From a phage: 64,000 nucleotides of DNA. The number at the start of each line of letters is the position of its first letter. Position 1 is the stretch's first letter. Of the stretch, positions 25,099 through 63,762 are shown one piece after another. The stretch lies in the NCBI GenBank assembly GCA_032691205.1, contig GCA_032691205.1_4541.1, one strand, 5' to 3'. A program made the position numbers and the translations under genes. The notes beneath the pieces are model-generated. The model had not been told where the DNA came from. It worked only from the letters and a program-made list of their open reading frames with translations, and did no database searches.

Positions 25099-25971
25099 AT
25101 GAAAGATTTGTACCAAGATGTTTTTTCTTTTTTAGATCGCACTTCAGAAACATACACTAGAGAGAATGCAAACAAACCTTCCCACCTTGTTAACACGCAC
25201 AGGGATCTCTTGGCGGGGATTTTAAGCAAACATATGGCAATGACACAGATACTGCCAAAAAACTTGTCAGAGTGGCATACAGAAGGTTTTGGACATATTC
25301 ACGACTTGGATTATCTGCTCTCTCCTCTTACAAACTGTTGTCTTGTTAATTATCAAGATATGTTAGAGAATGGTTTTAAGATCGGTGCTGCACAGATAGA
25401 AAAACCAAAATCTATTGGAGTAGCTACTACAGTGCTAACTCAAATCATCCAAGCTGTTGCCTCCAGTCAGTATGGAGGTCAGACGTGTGCTCACATTGAT
25501 AAAGGTCTTAGTCCTTATGTTGAAGCCAGTTTCCTTAAAAACATGGAGATAACCAAACGTCGCTACGGTTGTTATGCAAGGAAAGAAGCCCTAGAAATGA
25601 CCGAACAAGATGTATATGACGCTATGCAAACTCTCTTGTATCAGGTTAACACTTTAATGAGTGTTAATGGACAATCTCCTTTTATTACAATCAGTATGGG
25701 TCTGGATACCTCTGTTTTTGGCAGAATGATCACAGCTAACTATCTTAAAGTGCATAGTAACGGTCTAGGCAAAGATCATGTAACGCCTGTATTCCCTAAA
25801 GTTATTTTCTTTTTACAAGAAGGTGTTAACATGAAACCTAGTGATCCTAACTACGACCTTAAGCAACAAGCTTTGGCATGTTGTGCTGATCGTATTTATC
25901 CAGATTTTATTTCTGTTCCTTTGAACAAAGAAGTTACGGGATCAGCAGATGGTACCGTTACGAGTATGGGT
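25099..25971 (+). CDS. nrdD: anaerobic ribonucleoside-triphosphate reductase NrdD, exon 1
   Basis: NrdD-like N-terminus (ENANKPSHLVNTHRDLLAGILSKH, NCCLVNYQDMLENGFKIGAAQIEKPKSIGVAT); exon ends ...VTSMG at 25971. Confidence 0.75.
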
Positions 25972-26740
25972 AAACTATAACTGCTCATGTAAAATCTGCC
26001 TAAACGGGGGAACTCTCAACGAGACAATCCCGTGCTAAACGTAACAGAACTCCCAACACAGAAGAAGGGGGTACTGATATGAGAAAACAAATTCGTGATT
26101 TTGAAGGGTATGAAATTGACGAGCTTGGAAATGTTTATTGTACCAGGTATAAGGATGAAAGAATCCTTCGCTCGTGGGAAGAAATAAACACAGGATACCA
26201 ACTTGTCAGAATACGTAAAAACAAGAAAACTGTTTGCTTTCGGGTGCACAGACTTGTAGCTGAAGCGTTTTTACCCAATCCAGACAATTTACCTTATGTG
26301 AAGCATAAAGGTGACAATAGGAAAGACAACAGTGTATACAATCTTGAGTGGGGATCTTGTCCAGACAACACGCAAGAGGGTTACGATAATAACTGTTATG
26401 CTTTCTATACAAGGTGTCACAGTGTAAAAGCTACTCATAAGGCTACTGGTGAAGTTTTTTACTTTAAAAGTCTGAGATGTTGTGCTGACGCTTTAGGGTT
26501 GGACAGAAAAAGAATATCTGCAATCTTAAAGCGAGGAGCACCAAATAATTATGATTATGAGTTCTGTTACGAAATGCCTAACGACTAGCTGTGATGAATG
26601 TAGCAGCGTAGGGTGTAAGCCTATGACACCCCAAATGGTAGACATGCTTTAAGCATGAAGATATAGTCTGATCTGCATGGTGACATGCAGCAGCACGTAA
26701 TGGTGCGGGAGCGGCCTTGCGAGCCACTTTGAACATAATG
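25972..26740 (+). mobile_element. group I intron in nrdD carrying an HNH gene
   Basis: Exon 1 ends in U, intron ends in G (..CATAATG|TGT); joined exons read ..VTSMG|CRSFLSYY.. as one 604-aa NrdD. Confidence 0.65.
26079..26588 (+). CDS. HNH homing endonuclease (intron-encoded)
   Basis: 169 aa; VHRLVAEAFLPNPDNLPYVKHKGDNRKDNSVYNLEW; own RBS GAAGGGGG. Confidence 0.65.
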   Translation: MRKQIRDFEGYEIDELGNVYCTRYKDERILRSWEEINTGYQLVRIRKNKKTVCFRVHRLVAEAFLPNPDNLPYVKHKGDNRKDNSVYNLEWGSCPDNTQEGYDNNCYAFYTRCHSVKATHKATGEVFYFKSLRCCADALGLDRKRISAILKRGAPNNYDYEFCYEMPND

Positions 26741-27682
26741 TGTAGAAGTTTCTTGTCGTACTATGCCACCGAACAAGGAGAAAAATATGATGGACGATTC
26801 AACCTTGGAGTAGTTTCTATCAACTTGCCTCTGATTGCTGCGGAAGCGAGAAGTAAAGGAGAATCTTTCACCGATCTTCTTAATAAACATATGGAGATAG
26901 CCTACGATGCTCACATGTTACGTGTAAACCGTATCAGACATACCAAAGCATCGGAAAACCCTATTCTTTTCATGGAAGGGGCTTTAGCGCGTTTAAATGC
27001 CAACGATGAAATTGGTGCTTTGTTTGAAGGTGGTTATGCTTCTATTAGTATTGGTTATGTAGGTCTTGCCGAAGCTTTGGAAATCCTTTATCCAGAGGAA
27101 AAAGATAAAAAGGAACTAGGTAAAAACATTCTGCAACATATGAAAGATGTGTGTGCTGTGTTTAAAGAACGATCTAAGTTGGCATTTAGTCTTTATGGAA
27201 CTCCAGCAGAATCCTTGTGCTATAAATTTGCAACAGCTTTAAATGAAAAATATCCAGGTCTGGTAGAAAGAGACTATCTTACTAATTCTTTTCATCAACC
27301 TGTAGGGTTGGTAACAAATCCTTTTGAAAAATGGGATTATGAAGCAGGTTTTGCACAGATTAGCAATGGTGGTAACATAAGTTATGTCGAAACACCAAAC
27401 TTAAAGAATAACTTAGAAGCTTTGGAGACTTTAGTAGACTACGCTTATGAACATATTCACTATTTTGGTATTAATCAGCCCGTGGATCAATGCTTTAAGT
27501 GTGGTTTTCATGGAGAATTTAAGGCAACGGCTAAAGGGTTTGAGTGTCCTGATTGTGGCAACCATGAAGAAGAAACTATTTCTGTAGTTAGACGTGTATC
27601 AGGGTATCTTTCTGCCCCTAATTCACGGCCTTATAACAAAGGTAAAATGCAGGAAGTTTTGCAAAGGGAGAAACATCTTTGA
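26741..27682 (+). CDS. nrdD: anaerobic ribonucleoside-triphosphate reductase NrdD, exon 2
   Basis: C-terminal Zn ribbon CFKCGFHGEF...CPDCG and glycyl-radical motif RRVSGYLS. Confidence 0.75.
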   Translation, partial: CRSFLSYYATEQGEKYDGRFNLGVVSINLPLIAAEARSKGESFTDLLNKHMEIAYDAHMLRVNRIRHTKASENPILFMEGALARLNANDEIGALFEGGYASISIGYVGLAEALEILYPEEKDKKELGKNILQHMKDVCAVFKERSKLAFSLYGTPAESLCYKFATALNEKYPGLVERDYLTNSFHQPVGLVTNPFEKWDYEAGFAQISNGGNISYVETPNLKNNLEALETLVDYAYEHIHYFGINQPVDQCFKCGFHGEFKATAKGFECPDCGNHEEETISVVRRVSGYLSAPNSRPYNKGKMQEVLQREKHL

Positions 27683-52857: not shown

Positions 52858-53285
52858 TCAGTAAGTTATGCTCGTGTTGTGGGGCTGAAAAGCCCCTCAA
52901 CATGTTCCAAGTAAGGAAGGCTTCTAAAGATGGCTATACGGCATCCTGTAAAGCTTGCTTAAAAGAACGTGACCGTATACGAGATCAAGACCCTAATCGT
53001 AAAGCAGCAAAAGAAAAGTATGTAAAGGGAAAAGGAAAGGATAAAGCAGACGCGGCTAAAAAACGTTGGCAAGAAAAGAATCCCAAGAAGCGTAGTGTTC
53101 ACGTTTTAGTTGGTAACGCACTCCGAGATGGAAAGTTAGTGAAACAACCTTGCCAAGTGTGTGGGTCTGTTGATGTTCATGCTCATCATTGTGATTATGA
53201 TAAACCACTAGATGTTCTATGGCTGTGTCCTCTGCACCATGAGGCTTGGCATCAAGAACATGGTGAAGGGTTGAACGCTGAATAA
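52854..53285 (+). CDS. HNH endonuclease
   Basis: CSCCG...CKAC Zn ribbon; CQVCGSVDVHAHHCDYDKPLDVLWLCPLHHEAWH. Confidence 0.6.
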   Translation: MISKLCSCCGAEKPLNMFQVRKASKDGYTASCKACLKERDRIRDQDPNRKAAKEKYVKGKGKDKADAAKKRWQEKNPKKRSVHVLVGNALRDGKLVKQPCQVCGSVDVHAHHCDYDKPLDVLWLCPLHHEAWHQEHGEGLNAE

Positions 53286-53290
53286 AAGAA

Positions 53291-53318
53291 AGGAGCCAAA
53301 TGGCTCCTTTTCTTATTT
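53291..53318. terminator. bidirectional terminator between convergent blocks
   Basis: AGGAGCC-AAAT-GGCTCCT with T-runs on both sides. Confidence 0.6.
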
Positions 53319-55985
53319 ATAACCCGAAGGGATGCTGTTGTAATCAGAAAGTTTTGTGCAATACCTGAAGAGGTAACTATTAGCTACTCCACCTAATGTG
53401 TTTGTTAATGTTGTTCCTGTTCCTGTAAGATTTGTGCATCCACTAAAGAAAGAAGATAATGCTCCACGTTTACCACAAACAGTTAACCCTGGGTTGTCAT
53501 TAAAGATCTTATTAAAATCTGTAAGTCCTAAACAACCTTGGAATGTAGCTGTTAAAGAGGTCACTTTCGTTGGAATATTATCAAACATTCCTGCTGGAAC
53601 TTCTGCAAGAGAGGTGCAATCTTTAAAGGTGTAAGAATATCTTGTAACTTTTGACAGATTCTTAAATAAATCTGAAGGAATAGATGTTAAAGATGTACAA
53701 CCTTCAAACGTGCTTGACATTGTTGTCATTGAAGGAAATAAAGCATCACTGAATAATCCTTCAGGGATAGCTGTCAAACTTGTGCAGCCAGAGAAGATAC
53801 CGCTTATAGATGTTCCGGTGTAAGATGTGTTACTAAAACAATCAGAAGTTATTCGTCTTAAGTTAGCACAACCTTTTAAGAATTGTGAGGCTGGGCTTGT
53901 AGAATAACTGATTCTATTACCGCCCCAAAGTTCTAAAAGACTTGGGTTTGCTTCCATAGACACTTCCACACTATTAACTACTGAAGCACTTGCAAATTCA
54001 ATAGCCAGTCTATATTCTCCTGCTGGATAACTATCCACTGTAGAGAAAGCTTTGTTTCTAAATATTACTTTACTTGAAGGAACTACAACGTCATCCACCT
54101 TAACTACAAAGTTAGCTGGTGTAACAGTACCCGATAAAGTTGGGAACGTAATTGCCCCATCTGCCGAGTGGTTGAAATATCCGTTTAGAACCGTTAAATT
54201 ACTACTCGGAGATGGAGCTAACTCCTTTCCCGCAACAGCATTCACTGTGAGATAAGAACTATCTTCGGCAGTTACCACACCTTGATAAGTTGCTCTACAA
54301 CCGATACGACAACCTCCATCAGCAACCGCTGTAATAACGCCTGTAACAGGGTCAACTGTTGCTACCGTAGGGTCATTAGAGAAATACTCAACAACCATAC
54401 CAGGTAAGCTTGCTGCTCCTGTTGGCGTTATTTCTGCTACCATTGTTTGTGTTGTTCCTACATCCATCGCAGATAAGCTAGGGGTGTAAACACTCAATGT
54501 TGAAGCATATCCTCCAGAGGTATCTGATAAAGTTGTTCCTTCAGCGTTTAAGGCTGTCATACCTGCATCAAAACCACCTTCTGCATGGAAAGTCATTAAA
54601 CCAGTAGATGATATTGTCATGTTTGCAGGGGCAGAAGAAGTGTATTTAATATTGAAAAGTTTACCTCCTCCTGGGCTAACAGAATGTGTCAACTGTTTAG
54701 TTCCACCTACAATACAAATTCCTAAAGAATCTGTAGTTAAGCCAGTTGCCAGAATATCACCCGTAATCACGGAGCTTGCTATTGGTGTGAATTTATTATA
54801 GTTTAGACCGCTATTGAACAGATACGAGGCTTTCCCATCTTTCCAAATACCGGAATAATACATATCTCCATTATAAACGAAAAAGGTTCCTTGATAACCT
54901 AATTGGTTAGTAACATCCATATTCAGCGTATGAACGCTTGTGAGCTTGTTTATATCCCAAGAACCCACTCCTTCAGGTTTAACTGGTTTTCCCACTTGGA
55001 GTGGATCTCCGCTCGCAGAATCATACCCCAAACCTAAGTTTGCAGTGTAGTTCTTACCAATAGCCCACAAGGAATTATTGATCCCAACGAAAAAAGAGTG
55101 GCGGCTTGGTGGAAACTTCCATGTTGAGAAACCTGCTGCAAAGGTATCCAGTTTAGTGTAGGTTGTTTCTGTATTAGACCTAACATATAAGTAGTTTACT
55201 GTACCCGTGCCACCGGAGGTATCTCCTACAACTATTGTCTGGGAAACTGTATTGATGTAATCTTTGACATACACTGTTTCAGTAGCGGATATCTTAGCAT
55301 TGACAAAAGCTGTTGTTGTGTTATTATTACCTGCTAAACCTTTACTAGCTCCACAAACACGCAAGGTTCCCACATTGTTGACATAAGAGCATTGGTTGTA
55401 ACCTGCATCAAAAGCAACTGCTGCACTTGTTATCTGACGAGGAGTAGAAACTTCGTTAGTAGTACTTGCACCTAAACTGCCTACTGTGTTTTGACCTGAT
55501 CCATAAAGAACACCACTATTCATTAACCAGAGAGTGTTGTTATATCCTCCCTTAACCTCTTTAAGATTAGCTAAAGAGATAGTCCCTGTTATTACAGATG
55601 GAAAGCTGGTCCAAGTAGTTACACATGCGTCCGTACCACCTGCTGCTATAGATCCTACCAACCCTGCTGTCAATCCTGAATATTGCCATCCCCCACTGTT
55701 AGTTTTAATAACAAAACAACGATCTGCGGTAAACACATCCGCTACTACAGTAGAAGCTAAATGGAAATTATTGAATCGTGCACTACGAGTTCCATCTGCA
55801 ATCTCACCAAAAAGGTTTGCGCCTTGAGTAAACAATCTACCATCATTAAGCAAAATTGCTAAACTACTGTTAGAATTACCAGCGTTATCTGGGTAATCTA
55901 AAGTAATTACTTTTTTAACAATACCTGCTGGCAGAGGAACGACACCAGTGCTGGTCATAATAGTAAATATTGGAATTGGAAACAT
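53313..55985 (-). CDS. tail fibre protein with RCC1-like repeats, Big_2 domain and BspA-type leucine-rich repeats
   Basis: 890 aa; GxNxxGxLG-like repeats (YGSGQNTVGSLG, LWAIGKNYTANLGLG), Ig-like segment VATVDPVTGVITAVADGG, C-terminal FxGCxxLxxIP repeats. Confidence 0.6.
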   Translation of the reverse strand: MFPIPIFTIMTSTGVVPLPAGIVKKVITLDYPDNAGNSNSSLAILLNDGRLFTQGANLFGEIADGTRSARFNNFHLASTVVADVFTADRCFVIKTNSGGWQYSGLTAGLVGSIAAGGTDACVTTWTSFPSVITGTISLANLKEVKGGYNNTLWLMNSGVLYGSGQNTVGSLGASTTNEVSTPRQITSAAVAFDAGYNQCSYVNNVGTLRVCGASKGLAGNNNTTTAFVNAKISATETVYVKDYINTVSQTIVVGDTSGGTGTVNYLYVRSNTETTYTKLDTFAAGFSTWKFPPSRHSFFVGINNSLWAIGKNYTANLGLGYDSASGDPLQVGKPVKPEGVGSWDINKLTSVHTLNMDVTNQLGYQGTFFVYNGDMYYSGIWKDGKASYLFNSGLNYNKFTPIASSVITGDILATGLTTDSLGICIVGGTKQLTHSVSPGGGKLFNIKYTSSAPANMTISSTGLMTFHAEGGFDAGMTALNAEGTTLSDTSGGYASTLSVYTPSLSAMDVGTTQTMVAEITPTGAASLPGMVVEYFSNDPTVATVDPVTGVITAVADGGCRIGCRATYQGVVTAEDSSYLTVNAVAGKELAPSPSSNLTVLNGYFNHSADGAITFPTLSGTVTPANFVVKVDDVVVPSSKVIFRNKAFSTVDSYPAGEYRLAIEFASASVVNSVEVSMEANPSLLELWGGNRISYSTSPASQFLKGCANLRRITSDCFSNTSYTGTSISGIFSGCTSLTAIPEGLFSDALFPSMTTMSSTFEGCTSLTSIPSDLFKNLSKVTRYSYTFKDCTSLAEVPAGMFDNIPTKVTSLTATFQGCLGLTDFNKIFNDNPGLTVCGKRGALSSFFSGCTNLTGTGTTLTNTLGGVANSYLFRYCTKLSDYNSIPSGYK

Positions 55986-55995
55986 TTAAACCCTC

Positions 55996-56023
55996 CATAA
56001 AAAGAAAGCCCCTTTCGGGGCTT
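55996..56023 (-). terminator. rho-independent terminator
   Basis: AAGCCCC-TTTC-GGGGCTT followed on the minus strand by TTTCTTTT. Confidence 0.55.
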
Positions 56024-56026
56024 CTG

Positions 56027-58077: not shown

Positions 58078-58107
58078 TATTGGAAGAAGAGGGGGATTCC
58101 CCCCTCT
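58078..58107 (-). terminator. terminator-like hairpin
   Basis: GAGGGGGGA-TTC-CCCCCTC palindrome after the stop of 58114..61167. Confidence 0.35.
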
Positions 58108-58113
58108 ATTCCA

Positions 58114-61100
58114 TTAGGTTGTTGGCACATCTACTACTGGCGTTGGGCGAATAACCGCAGTATTACCTACAGAAACATTACTGGAATCATTAGGTATGGT
58201 TTTAATTCTAACTCCAGCACTTGTAGGCGTTACAATTGGATCTGCAATGTCTATTTTAACTGGGTTAGTCCACGTATCATTATCTTGATAAGGTGCACGA
58301 GTAATAACTGTGTCCAAATCTGCTCCACCTACGCCAGCACCAGGAATACGGATACGTGTCCCTGCTGACAGAGGATAATGATACAACCAAGAAGCATTTG
58401 TTGCTGTCCCGTTAGGAGTCAAGTTCTGTGTCAGGAAGGTATCTCCTGCCTGTGTAGCTCGAATACCGAAAGCTGGGATATCTGGAATATATGCCCCACT
58501 TGTTGTTACAAGGAAGAACGTATTATCCGCCTTGACTATCATATCACCTTTGTCAAACTCTTTCCCTGTTGGGAAATGCATTCCATCAATGTTTCGACTA
58601 GGATTAGGCTCTAAGTAATAAACTTTGCCCGTTGTCCCTACAATAGCTCCAATACCACCTGCGATATTGGTATACATATTAGCTTCAACATTACAGTTGA
58701 CACGATGAATATCCGAGTAACGGCAACGGCTCCACTGTGGACGACCAGTAACCATCGTCTTGCCATCTGGGTAACAGTTTACGTTAACCATTTCAAGAAC
58801 AGATTTTTCTCTACGGAAGAATCCATCATAAAATGTTCCTGGACCAGATTCAGGTTGACCAACACAATCGAAGATATTACAGGTGATGTTAGACATTGAA
58901 AGCCAAGAAGCTATACCGAACAACTGCAATGCAGCGCAACGAATATTTTCAAAGCTAACTCTGTTTTCATAACCTGGCCCAGCGGAAACTCCCGCAAAAA
59001 CACGCCCAGTTTTGGTGTGAATGTTACGAACAGAATAGTTAAAGCATGGGTTTGAAGGTCTACCCTGTGCCGGAACTACCGGATTACCCTCTTCGTCCAG
59101 AACTGCGTTAGTTCCCCACTCCAAATAAATCATACGGATATTACTTGCAAGTGTGCTACCGTCTGTTTTAGGCTCTCCATAAACACCGTCAATCGTAAAA
59201 TCTTTACTTCCATACATTACAACTGCGCCAGTTGCCAAACCTGTCCCAACAGATACGGTTTGATCTGGATCGCCATGAATGTTTTCGATAGAAATATTAC
59301 GACCAACTTCTACGTGGACAATCTGACGGCAACGTTTTGCAAAAACGTTACGAATTGTAATATTCTTGCAATATTGATCATCAGGGATTCCGTAACCATA
59401 TGGTCCTTTACCAGCTACACCGATACCGATACCCCAGTTGGACAGAGGAATAGGAGCGTTAGTCCCATCGATATTAGACAGGTAAATATTCTCAATCACA
59501 CAACCATCATCATAATGTTTATTGATGACGTTCAGTTCTATCGCATCACCTTGCATGTCCATGAAGGTAAGGTTACGGAAGACACCGCGTGTTACTGGTT
59601 CTCCTGTCCCTTGTTGAAGGATGCCATATAACCCGTTTTTAAAAGTACAATTATCAATTTCAAAAGTACCTGATATTGGGTTGCCTTGGAATACCAAGCT
59701 ACCAACTTGACCTGCGCGAGGAGCACCGTCCCACAAACAATCGAACATGCGCACAGCACCACCCCAATACATAACACGAGAGTTACGGAAAGTTGTGCCT
59801 TCTACTGTAGCATTCTGCACACGATAGTCGCGTTGACCACGGAACACACCACCACGCAAAGTGATACCTTGAATATCAAAAGAGCTTGTCGTGAAAGTCA
59901 TATCGCAACCGTAAGCATCGAGAATCTTACTTTTCGAAGCTTTTGCTGCTAACAGTGCCGCCTGGAAAGCTGCTTCTGGTGTGGTATAGGTAGTTGTATT
60001 GTTAGCAAATTCTGACAAGTAGACAACATCGAATAAATCGTTGTATGTTCCACCACGAGGGGTTAACAGTCCTTCCGTATTAGTTAGAACCCATGCGTTT
60101 GGACCTAATCCACCGCTTGTCTCTAATGTGTCAGAGGCCAAAATACTTTTTGGTAAACTTCCAGCCCAACGATAACGACCAGCACCACGTCCAATCGTCT
60201 GATTTTTAGCTGTCAGAGTTACATTATTACCAAAGCTTGTAGGCAAATGAACAAACTGTCCACGTTCAACAGCTAATGCAGAAAGATCTACAGATCCGCC
60301 AGAATAAGTCATTACTCCAGAAACAGACAAAGATGTTAAAGTCCCTGTGATGTTAGGAGGCAATGTGTAGGAAGATTGTGCTACTGGATCATACAGAGCT
60401 TTAATCCCTGTTAATGATTGACCCGCTGTTGCGTAAGCTACTTCATCATCCAACAAACCGTATTTACGAGCAATAGTTTGTAAAGGTACTTTATCCATGC
60501 TTTCTGTCAGTTCTTCAGTTTTTGTTTCTAAACTGACAAGACGGTTTTCTAAGTTAGGATCTGTATCTGCGGAAGCTACGATTTTACCAATATAGGCAAA
60601 AAGCTTGTTTGGCAGTCCTGTTGCAGGATCATGTCCCAAAGGTTCAGATAAAATGATTTTACTATCTTCTATGCGGAAAGCTTCTCCCAGAACCTGAATA
60701 ACACCATTGATTGTAACAATAGCACTATCAAAGATGTAGGGAGGACTGATTACTGTTTCATAACCAGTTGCACCAGAATATACCCAAGGGGTGACTTCTG
60801 TTGCTAGTTGTTCTGTCTTCAGTCCCCACAATACCCAGTTGTTATCTCCTACTGGAGTCCCTTGCATAGGAATTGGGTTTACCAGTGTAGCATTAGGCGC
60901 ATAGTAATAACCACTCAACACTCCATTCTGGAAATAACGAAGTTGGTTAAAAACTGTTTCGTTTGTGCCTTGCGCCCAATCCAATGGGCTTTTAAAGAAA
61001 AAGTTGTCAACAAGGGCTTTTCTCAGGGTTGGTATCAACCCTGATTCTGTTTCAATACTCTCTGTAGCACTTCCATTAATAACATCATGGAGTTGGTTAG

Positions 61101-61167
61101 ATGAGAAAATAACCAGGTCTACGCCCTGTTCGAGAGACGTTGCTGGATATGTTGGGAATGTTGCCAT
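58114..61167 (-). CDS. tailspike/tail fibre with predicted right-handed beta-helix (possible depolymerase)
   Basis: 1017 aa; periodic N/G/V/I rungs (NCTFKNGLYGILQ, NITIRNVFAKRC, NISIENIHGD). Confidence 0.55.
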   Translation of the reverse strand: MATFPTYPATSLEQGVDLVIFSSNQLHDVINGSATESIETESGLIPTLRKALVDNFFFKSPLDWAQGTNETVFNQLRYFQNGVLSGYYYAPNATLVNPIPMQGTPVGDNNWVLWGLKTEQLATEVTPWVYSGATGYETVISPPYIFDSAIVTINGVIQVLGEAFRIEDSKIILSEPLGHDPATGLPNKLFAYIGKIVASADTDPNLENRLVSLETKTEELTESMDKVPLQTIARKYGLLDDEVAYATAGQSLTGIKALYDPVAQSSYTLPPNITGTLTSLSVSGVMTYSGGSVDLSALAVERGQFVHLPTSFGNNVTLTAKNQTIGRGAGRYRWAGSLPKSILASDTLETSGGLGPNAWVLTNTEGLLTPRGGTYNDLFDVVYLSEFANNTTTYTTPEAAFQAALLAAKASKSKILDAYGCDMTFTTSSFDIQGITLRGGVFRGQRDYRVQNATVEGTTFRNSRVMYWGGAVRMFDCLWDGAPRAGQVGSLVFQGNPISGTFEIDNCTFKNGLYGILQQGTGEPVTRGVFRNLTFMDMQGDAIELNVINKHYDDGCVIENIYLSNIDGTNAPIPLSNWGIGIGVAGKGPYGYGIPDDQYCKNITIRNVFAKRCRQIVHVEVGRNISIENIHGDPDQTVSVGTGLATGAVVMYGSKDFTIDGVYGEPKTDGSTLASNIRMIYLEWGTNAVLDEEGNPVVPAQGRPSNPCFNYSVRNIHTKTGRVFAGVSAGPGYENRVSFENIRCAALQLFGIASWLSMSNITCNIFDCVGQPESGPGTFYDGFFRREKSVLEMVNVNCYPDGKTMVTGRPQWSRCRYSDIHRVNCNVEANMYTNIAGGIGAIVGTTGKVYYLEPNPSRNIDGMHFPTGKEFDKGDMIVKADNTFFLVTTSGAYIPDIPAFGIRATQAGDTFLTQNLTPNGTATNASWLYHYPLSAGTRIRIPGAGVGGADLDTVITRAPYQDNDTWTNPVKIDIADPIVTPTSAGVRIKTIPNDSSNVSVGNTAVIRPTPVVDVPTT

Positions 61168-63132: not shown

Positions 63133-63762
63133 TTAATCTATTTGCTTGAGAAGCGTACACATGCGTCCTGTTTCATCCCCAGTAGATTCCATGTACAGGG
63201 AACCTAAACCACCAATACCATGAGGCGGTTTGGTAGCATAATAAGAACTAAAACCAAAAGCTGATCCTGCTTTTGCTCCAAGACGGTAGCTACTAATAAT
63301 AGGGAAAACACTTAGCAACTGCTCTAAAGCTTGATCAGATTGAAGACACAGGTTGTAGAAAAACACATCAAAGGTTTTATTCAAACCTACGTAAGTATTA
63401 AGCGTTTCACGCTCTGTTCCTGTGAAACGGGCGAAGATATCAATTATGTCACCACGAGTCCCCGATGAGGCTACGCGGTAAGCCCTGATTTTTAATATTG
63501 TTCTATACTCTTCATCATCAGAGCCATTACGTTCGATCCCCATTTCTTCCCCTAGAATATCTAGGTATTTGCCTGTGGCTGTAGAGATCAAGCGGTGTTT
63601 AGCAAGATAGATCATTGCCTGATCTATCTTTTGCTTTTCACTGGATACGATGTAGAGGAGCTTGACAATGTTAGGAGAAGATTTAAAATCTTCAATCAGA
63701 AGGTTTTTAACATCTTCATTGATACTGGCCCAAGTTGTTACATGGTCAACACTCACTGCCAT
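63133..63762 (-). CDS. hypothetical structural protein
   Basis: ORF 209 aa in the structural block. Confidence 0.55.
   Translation of the reverse strand: MAVSVDHVTTWASINEDVKNLLIEDFKSSPNIVKLLYIVSSEKQKIDQAMIYLAKHRLISTATGKYLDILGEEMGIERNGSDDEEYRTILKIRAYRVASSGTRGDIIDIFARFTGTERETLNTYVGLNKTFDVFFYNLCLQSDQALEQLLSVFPIISSYRLGAKAGSAFGFSSYYATKPPHGIGGLGSLYMESTGDETGRMCTLLKQID

Follow-up and report, generated by a model that had tools for sequence, protein, structure and literature searches.

The DNA analysed here (the window) is a 64,000-nucleotide (nt) stretch of contig GCA_032691205.1_4541.1 from NCBI GenBank assembly GCA_032691205.1. It was assigned to Phapecoctavirus (Stephanstirmvirinae), from the phAPEC8-like group of E. 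coli phages. A minus-strand tail-fibre operon runs from about position 63762 to 53313, and its final gene, which encodes a protein of 890 amino acids (aa), is the subject of this report (Table 1). The operon members before it encode a DUF2612 baseplate protein, a 353-aa fibre together with a Caudo_TAP chaperone, a lipoprotein, a 1017-aa Tail_spike_N/beta-helix "colanic acid degradation" spike, and a 674-aa fibre containing Tail_spike_N and Collagen domains. Pfam matches for the last two confirmed the initial annotation, in which collagen-like and beta-helix fibres were described beside the gene. The gene corresponds to gp226 of phage ESCO5 (YP_009787159.1, annotated "tail protein"), to which it is 97% identical in DNA and about 98% identical in protein over the full length, at the same position. 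This level of DNA identity extends to more than 30 other deposited genomes. There is no substantive difference between the ESCO5 gene and the copy in the window, but only the latter has an endonuclease open reading frame (ORF) just downstream. The protein has been named TfpM1, with a length of 890 or 891 aa and without domain analysis, and was described as absent from Justusliebigvirus (PMC12695924).

The architecture of the protein was examined in a full-length AlphaFold2 model built from 87 aligned homologues. The mean predicted local distance difference test score (pLDDT) was 87.8, and a model of the C-terminus reached a pLDDT of 91.4 and a predicted template modelling score (pTM) of 0.89. 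From the N-terminus the order is a short peptide, a seven-bladed propeller, two immunoglobulin (Ig)-like domains, a beta-sandwich and leucine-rich repeats (LRRs). The set of domains first proposed, namely RCC1-like, Ig-like and, in a broad sense, BspA-type LRR, is backed by hidden Markov models, homologues and structure prediction, since repeats were detected by both approaches: RCC1 and Big_2 scored above their Pfam cut-offs and the solenoid appeared in the model. Details of the map had to be redrawn. Two Ig-like domains are present in the model instead of one; the seven C-terminal repeats cover about 190 residues (aa 703-890) and not 250, aa 590-695 being a separate beta-sandwich; and the GxNxxGxLG repeats described for the N-terminal half do mark a propeller, but the strict motif occurs just twice (aa 55 and 164) and the other blades are degenerate. 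The architecture was also called unusual, a description that has to be tempered for a gene kept in at least 36 deposited phage genomes, matched end to end by PHROG 11922 ("tail protein"), with more than 14,000 cluster representatives of its LRR type and with LRRs on other phage tail proteins. A sequence search of the PDB returned no solved phage homologue, just weak RCC1 and LRR matches. New in this analysis are the corrected domain map with the second Ig-like domain and the overlooked beta-sandwich, the breakpoint, the catalogue of tips and the N-terminal peptide, to which a proposed intermediate position of the repeats, between LRR_5 and DUF285, can be added. The gene itself was already deposited many times and is in PHROG, and RCC1-like, Big_2 and BspA/DUF285-type modules are known from phage proteins; the gain is interpretive and not the discovery of a new gene.

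Table 1. Features of the 890-aa gene and its immediate surroundings, in window positions.
Feature	Position	Strand	Basis or remarks
Whole gene	53313..55985	-	890 aa, ATG start; ESCO5 gp226/TfpM1 orthologue; PHROG 11922
Ribosome-binding site GGAGGG	55991..55996	-	5 nt upstream of the ATG; read from sequence
Terminator-like hairpin and T-run, GAAGCCCC-GAAA-GGGGCTTT	56005..56024	-	Within the 41 nt that separate the collagen fibre stop from the 890-aa gene
N-terminal peptide, aa 1-16 (MFPIPIFTIMTSTGVV)	55938..55985	-	Motif M[FYLI]P[IF]P; modelled (as a monomer) with low pLDDT
Seven-bladed RCC1-like beta-propeller, aa 23-404	54774..55919	-	Pfam, AlphaFold2 model, Foldseek
Big_2 Ig-like domain 1, aa 409-496	54498..54761	-	Pfam, AlphaFold2 model
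Big_2 Ig-like domain 2, aa 497-583	54237..54497	-	Pfam, model; ends in junction motif YQGVVTAxDSSYLxVNAV
Recombination breakpoint, codon 584/585	54234..54235	-	ESCO13 DNA 98% identical upstream, unrelated downstream
Beta-sandwich cap, about 105 aa, aa 590-695	53901..54218	-	AlphaFold2 models; site of the PKD-like "WGDG" cap in BspA/DUF285 surface proteins
LRR solenoid, aa 700-890	53316..53888	-	Seven units FxGCxxLxxIPxxLF... and C-terminal cap LSDYxSIPxxYK
Intrinsic-terminator-like hairpin, bidirectional	53288..53311	no strand	Immediately 3' of the stop codon of the 890-aa gene
HNH-like endonuclease ORF, 143 aa	52854..53285	+	Neighbour; phrog_2340, E 3e-40; motif CxxC...HHC...CPLHH

Comparison with phage ESCO13 revealed that the C-terminal tip is exchanged as a unit. 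The DNA of the two phages is 98% identical from position 58100 down to 54235. The stretch 54234 to 52860 is unrelated, and identity resumes at 52859, with 98.7%. The junction directly follows the motif that closes the second Ig-like domain. ESCO13 gp245 and its counterpart in phiWec179 represent an allele of 888 or 891 aa at the same locus and of the same length, in which aa 1-584 are 99-100% identical to the protein of the window whereas the last 307 aa are unrelated to its tip. This alternative, 891-type tip is of a GNGWYR type without Pfam match. It shares 91.5% identity with the C-terminus of the "lateral tail fiber protein" of EmilieFrey (Justusliebigvirus) and 25-29% with "minor tail proteins" of siphophages (Kagunavirus). 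Because of this homology to lateral-fibre and minor-tail C-termini, the tip slot appears to hold binding modules of the tail type. Other members of the family carry a canonical DUF285 tip (P0141, E 1e-42) or a further unrelated one (P0140), and tipless members from Seunavirus and Cronobacter phages end after the Ig pair, at 565-609 aa. At least five tip states occur naturally. Judged from these alignments, the tip is a cassette that is swapped for unrelated modules by apparent recombination at the end of the second Ig-like domain. The gene lies in the tail-fibre locus, and its product is conserved at the N-terminus and variable at the C-terminus.

In the allele of the window the tip consists of the beta-sandwich and the LRR solenoid, the latter seen as such in the predicted structure. 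The pattern [FLY]x[GDYN]C is found seven times in the 890-aa protein (aa 703, 731, 760, 787, 815, 847 and 873) and nowhere else in it, and the spacings of 28, 29, 27, 28, 32 and 26 aa define units of 26-32 aa. LRR_5 (PF13306) gave no match on the full protein at E<=1, and on the isolated C-terminus it reached E 0.0049 and 17.2 bits against a cut-off of 27.7. DUF285 (PF03382) stayed at E 0.099 (12.8 bits) and E 0.026 (14.7 bits) against a cut-off of 25, and the PARCEL model TIGR02167 at 21.8 bits against 30. A direct assignment to LRR_5, DUF285 or PARCEL was dropped, and because the protein falls below the curated cut-offs of all three, its tip was filed only as a relative of these families. 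The canonical tandem 25-residue repeats of PARCEL proteins (PMC2996958) were not found; the protein has just seven, longer units and belongs to a phage fibre locus. Among the tip homologues in the C-terminal alignment, LRR_5 was detected in 33 of 90 (best E 1.7e-26), DUF285 in 29 and LRR_8 in 11, and those bearing LRR_5 or DUF285 are 30-45% identical to the tip. A query with aa 585-890 retrieved 203 relatives from one database, and from 1.84 billion representatives it retrieved 14,309 at E<=1e-3 and 796 at E<=1e-30; giant repeat proteins are frequent among these relatives. The family consensus has a PKD-like cap, 27-residue repeats (FxxCTSLTSIPxxLFxxxxxVTxFxxx) and a C-terminal cap (L.dY..IP..W). 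The repeat consensus FxxCxxLxxIPxxLF, the PKD-like cap and the solenoid fold are in common with BspA-family LRR_5 and DUF285/PARCEL surface proteins. The tip is best classed as a relative of the BspA-type LRR in the broad sense, placed between LRR_5 and DUF285/PARCEL. A comparable module is present in gp35 of Klebsiella Reipivirus (P2-like), which joins Tail_P2_I, Big_2 and LRR_5/DUF285 and is 33% identical to aa 705-886. Unlike the protein of the window, gp35 uses a P2 gpI baseplate domain as its anchor, has no propeller and contains many more repeats, which match in 7-8 places. Phage "BspA family" proteins in BFVD are further precedents for LRR modules.

At the other end of the protein, the N-terminal motif M[FYLI]P[IF]P was common to all family members examined: the protein of the window, phi92 gp152, EmilieFrey 0035, rV5 gp27 and the Seunavirus-like proteins. 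The domain that follows it differs, being a propeller in some members and an Ig domain in others, and the peptide is a candidate virion anchor. Like the gene studied here, rV5 gp27, PVP-SE1 gp40-like, phi92 gp152 and EmilieFrey bas61_0035 combine this peptide with the final position in the fibre locus. Tandem Big_2 domains are likewise present in phi92 gp152, EmilieFrey bas61_0035 and the PVP-SE1/Seunavirus-like proteins, and were seen in every member examined except rV5 gp27. Similarity over aa 1-195 of the protein is common to the rV5 and Seunavirus proteins. The 1878-aa rV5 gp27, annotated only as an Ig-like domain-containing protein, aligns just over these first ~195 aa, and the Seunavirus proteins, unlike that of the window, end after the Ig pair. 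EmilieFrey bas61_0035 (942 aa) starts with MYPIPLFMSTTSASVV and passes straight into two Ig domains without a propeller, followed by a middle domain annotated as a glycosidase and by the 891-type tip. The BASEL authors gave the syntenic genes of rV5-like and phi92-like phages, among them rV5 gp27 and EmilieFrey bas61_0035, the annotation of lateral tail fibre protein (PMC8594841). The family is best defined by the short N-terminal peptide, the tandem Big_2 core and the final place in the fibre locus, with both flanking modules apparently exchangeable. In phi92, gp153 has a weak SASA-esterase match, corresponds to the EmilieFrey middle domain, and carries the remark "no RBS". Together, phi92 gp152 and gp153 (L004 8956-10618) look like pieces of one EmilieFrey-like 942-aa gene, and beyond the gp152 stop the frame still reads as EmilieFrey sequence. 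A frameshift or a sequencing error may affect the phi92 copy.

A receptor-binding tip is plausible because the C-terminal module is exchanged in the manner of receptor-binding tips and the gene is the last in the fibre operon. On synteny and modularity, with similar LRR modules on other phage tail proteins as precedents, it was judged fairly probable that the protein serves the Phapecoctavirus tail-fibre apparatus as a modular side fibre or accessory adhesin, attached to the virion and equipped with an exchangeable tip. In the proposed mechanism, the N-terminal peptide (M-F/Y-P-I-P-I/L-F...) would attach the protein to the virion. The propeller and the two Big_2 domains would act as a spacer or stalk, perhaps with weak glycan contacts, and the beta-sandwich with the seven-unit solenoid would form the exchangeable ligand-binding tip. 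This tip would contact a host-surface structure in reversible adsorption and thereby contribute to host range. Recombination at the end of the second Ig-like domain would swap it for unrelated binding modules in sister phages. The protein is probably monomeric, a string of independently folding domains in the model. A classical trimeric fibre is not expected, because all predicted domains are normally monomeric folds; the initial designation as a receptor-binding tail fibre stays plausible through synteny, tip exchange and the annotation of the syntenic genes.

The propeller bears on the question of which end of the protein binds. Pfam RCC1 (PF00415) scored 24.2 bits against a cut-off of 21.7, over one blade only (aa 158-188). 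The whole-domain model WD40_RLD (PF25390) extended over aa 40-331 with E 8.5e-11, but its 42.2 bits were below the cut-off of 150. In the AlphaFold2 model (pLDDT mostly >85), 28 strands within aa 8-401 form seven four-stranded blades that can be superposed on RCC1 and UVR8. Foldseek matched the predicted propeller to UVR8 (E 1.3e-13, TM-score 0.71) and also to HERC2 and RCC1. Fold and blade number agree with UVR8, RCC1 and the RCC1-like domain of HERC2, but identity to them is just 12-18%, and no sign of guanine nucleotide exchange or chromatin function was seen in the protein. RCC1-like proteins with an unknown role have been described in virions of related phages, encoded by different genes (PMC11370258). 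Between genera the propeller is 35-52% identical and the Ig domains are 65-71% identical (P0133, P0141, P0146), so that the propeller diverges faster. Moreover, it is replaced or absent in relatives, and the tandem Ig was the sole element common to all members, with rV5 gp27 aligned over its first ~195 aa only. These observations would suit a protein of reverse or double polarity, in which the propeller is the main carbohydrate-binding head, or both ends bind, and the Ig core attaches to the virion. Such an arrangement was considered improbable. Phage fibres as a rule have an N-terminal anchor and a C-terminal binding end, the N-terminal peptide is conserved whatever comes next, and within Phapecoctavirus the propellers are 99-100% identical while the tips are unrelated.

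The Ig core, in turn, could be taken as a sign of decoration. Big_2 (PF02368) matched two stretches, with 34.6 bits (cut-off 22.8), and the Ig region shares 62% identity with the Big_2 pair of phi92 gp152 and EmilieFrey. With the C-terminal Ig of siphophage major tail proteins it shares 41-47%, and a "lambda protein V like fold" is noted in the record of phi92 gp152. The protein might be a virion decoration or environmental adhesin, like Hoc or the Ig-like domain of lambda gpV, that adheres weakly to mucus, debris or non-host surfaces and is dispensable for infection. Big_2 is typical of dispensable phage decoration modules, bacterial BspA-family proteins are adhesins to host matrix, and the predicted folds are monomeric. 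The tipless relatives and the broken phi92 copy also suggest a dispensable gene. The terminator-like hairpin ahead of the gene also speaks for decoration. Possibly by attenuation, it would leave the last gene less strongly expressed than the upstream fibres. Against decoration stand the location of the gene in the tail-fibre operon, the homology of the alternative tip to tail-fibre and minor-tail modules, and the sharp cassette exchange, which is the pattern expected of host-range determinants. The decoration hypothesis was regarded as unlikely.

LRR domains are common in bacterial effectors. A non-structural role was also considered, in which the protein acts, for example, as an effector in or on the infected cell and merely adjoins the fibre genes. 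Proteomic proof of virion association was not found, which fits this idea. The gene nevertheless has the same orientation as the fibre genes and lies 41 nt from them, the N-terminal peptide and Ig core are common to annotated lateral tail fibres, and neither a signal peptide nor an enzymatic domain was seen in the ORF translation or the Pfam scan of the 890-aa protein. A non-structural role was judged very improbable. All three alternatives are less consistent with the operon context and the conserved N-terminal peptide than an adhesin of the fibre apparatus.

Several observations weigh against the adhesin interpretation. All predicted domains are typically monomeric and no trimerisation element was seen in the 890-aa protein. 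The propeller is exchanged or missing in some relatives. No virion proteomics, localisation or binding data for the protein were found in the literature and structural records searched; gp27 is not listed in the virion mass spectrometry of rV5, and in a 2026 cryo-EM study of phi92 the fibres were unresolved and gp152 was not mentioned. No hypervariable face was found on the LRR among 13 LRR-type orthologues, the substitutions being diffuse. A correlation with host factors speaks for the adhesin interpretation but is confounded. Phages phiWec188 and phiWec190 need yhaH, and phiWec179 and phiWec186 need flhD (PMC12548472). The first two carry the LRR tip and the other two the 891-type tip; further differences between the groups are TfpL, at 74% identity, and an extra gene of 688 aa. 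YhaH, moreover, is an inner-membrane protein and an unlikely adsorption receptor. The extra gene follows TfpL in phiWec188 (L008 6626-8692) and is absent from phiWec179. A comparison of phiWec179 with phiWec188 was rejected as proof of tip function because TfpL and the extra gene differ too, and an O177 "proteomics" paper was dropped as proof of virion association because it is in silico only.

A stronger version of the adhesin interpretation would have the LRR tip act as a genuine receptor-binding domain, of a structural class so far without experimental characterisation in any phage; at present this is doubtful. An experimentally characterised phage LRR receptor-binding protein was not found in the PDB searches or in the literature searched, and a literature search for LRR/BspA tail fibres gave nothing relevant. 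Were it true, the target would perhaps be a protein and not a glycan. The swap to the 891-type tip would then switch Phapecoctavirus/"Wecvirus" between flagellum-dependent (flhD) and yhaH-dependent infection. Finally, M-F/Y-P-I-P would be a universal plug for arbitrary monomeric binding modules on the baseplate of Vequintavirinae and Stephanstirmvirinae.

Phages of the phAPEC8-like and phi92-like groups are used in therapy cocktails for their broad host range, and the roles of their individual fibre genes are unsettled (PMC8594841, PMC10844046). Reading the last gene of the fibre locus as a modular protein of three parts, with codon 584 as the swap point, would provide a handle for host-range engineering. 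The protein would also be a tractable case of an LRR/BspA-type module in a cultured coliphage.

Downstream of the gene, the endonuclease ORF sits on a 422-nt insertion (52860-53281) between a convergent gene for a single-stranded DNA-binding (SSB)-like protein and the terminator of the 890-aa gene. The insertion is absent from ESCO5 and from a Phapecoctavirus contig of the Logan assembly SRR10359460, is present beside the LRR-type allele in phiWec188, and falls inside the segment that differs from ESCO13. The ORF product may be a homing endonuclease and favour exchange of the tip cassette next to it. The SRR10359460 contig (L003 8001-9191) also has a 3.5-kb deletion that joins window position ~57832 to ~54284. 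It fuses Tail_spike_N, which occupies aa 1-73 of the collagen fibre, to residues ~567-890 of the protein, giving a 396-aa Tail_spike_N-sandwich-LRR protein. The fusion junction lies in an imperfect microhomology, CAAxGTGTxGxxACxGC. This fusion (P0001) was dropped as a recurrent natural variant, as a single contig carried it and the other members of its cluster were fragments.

Some observations concern other records and other parts of the window. At the protein level, the tips of MG065650 ("Campylobacter phage B15"), OR584014 ("Pseudomonas phage PsgM04F") and OP562383 ("Acinetobacter phage ABPW7") match E. coli Phapecoctavirus alleles with 90-99.7% identity. The host labels of these three records look doubtful, or the sequences are contaminating coliphages. 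In other parts of the window, eight of the larger ORFs (helicase, ribonucleotide reductases, ATPase, endonuclease and others), whose PHROG assignments are unrelated, gave no RCC1-like match in a scan that was not aimed at RCC1. In the 1017-aa colanidase-like spike (58114-61167, minus strand), Tail_spike_N is internal (aa 302-361), behind an N-terminal extension of about 230 aa; phi92 gp150 has only 804 aa. The extension matches the tail-fibre PHROG phrog_4549 at aa 9-114 and may be a branching adaptor. The gene nrdD, for the anaerobic ribonucleotide reductase, is split into two ORFs that match phrog_487 positions 102-392 and 393-713, and an HNH endonuclease ORF (phrog_59, E 2e-34) sits between them. 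The intervals of this region are 25099-25980, 26079-26588 and 26717-27682. The split is probably an interruption by an intron or mobile element, as in T-even phages.

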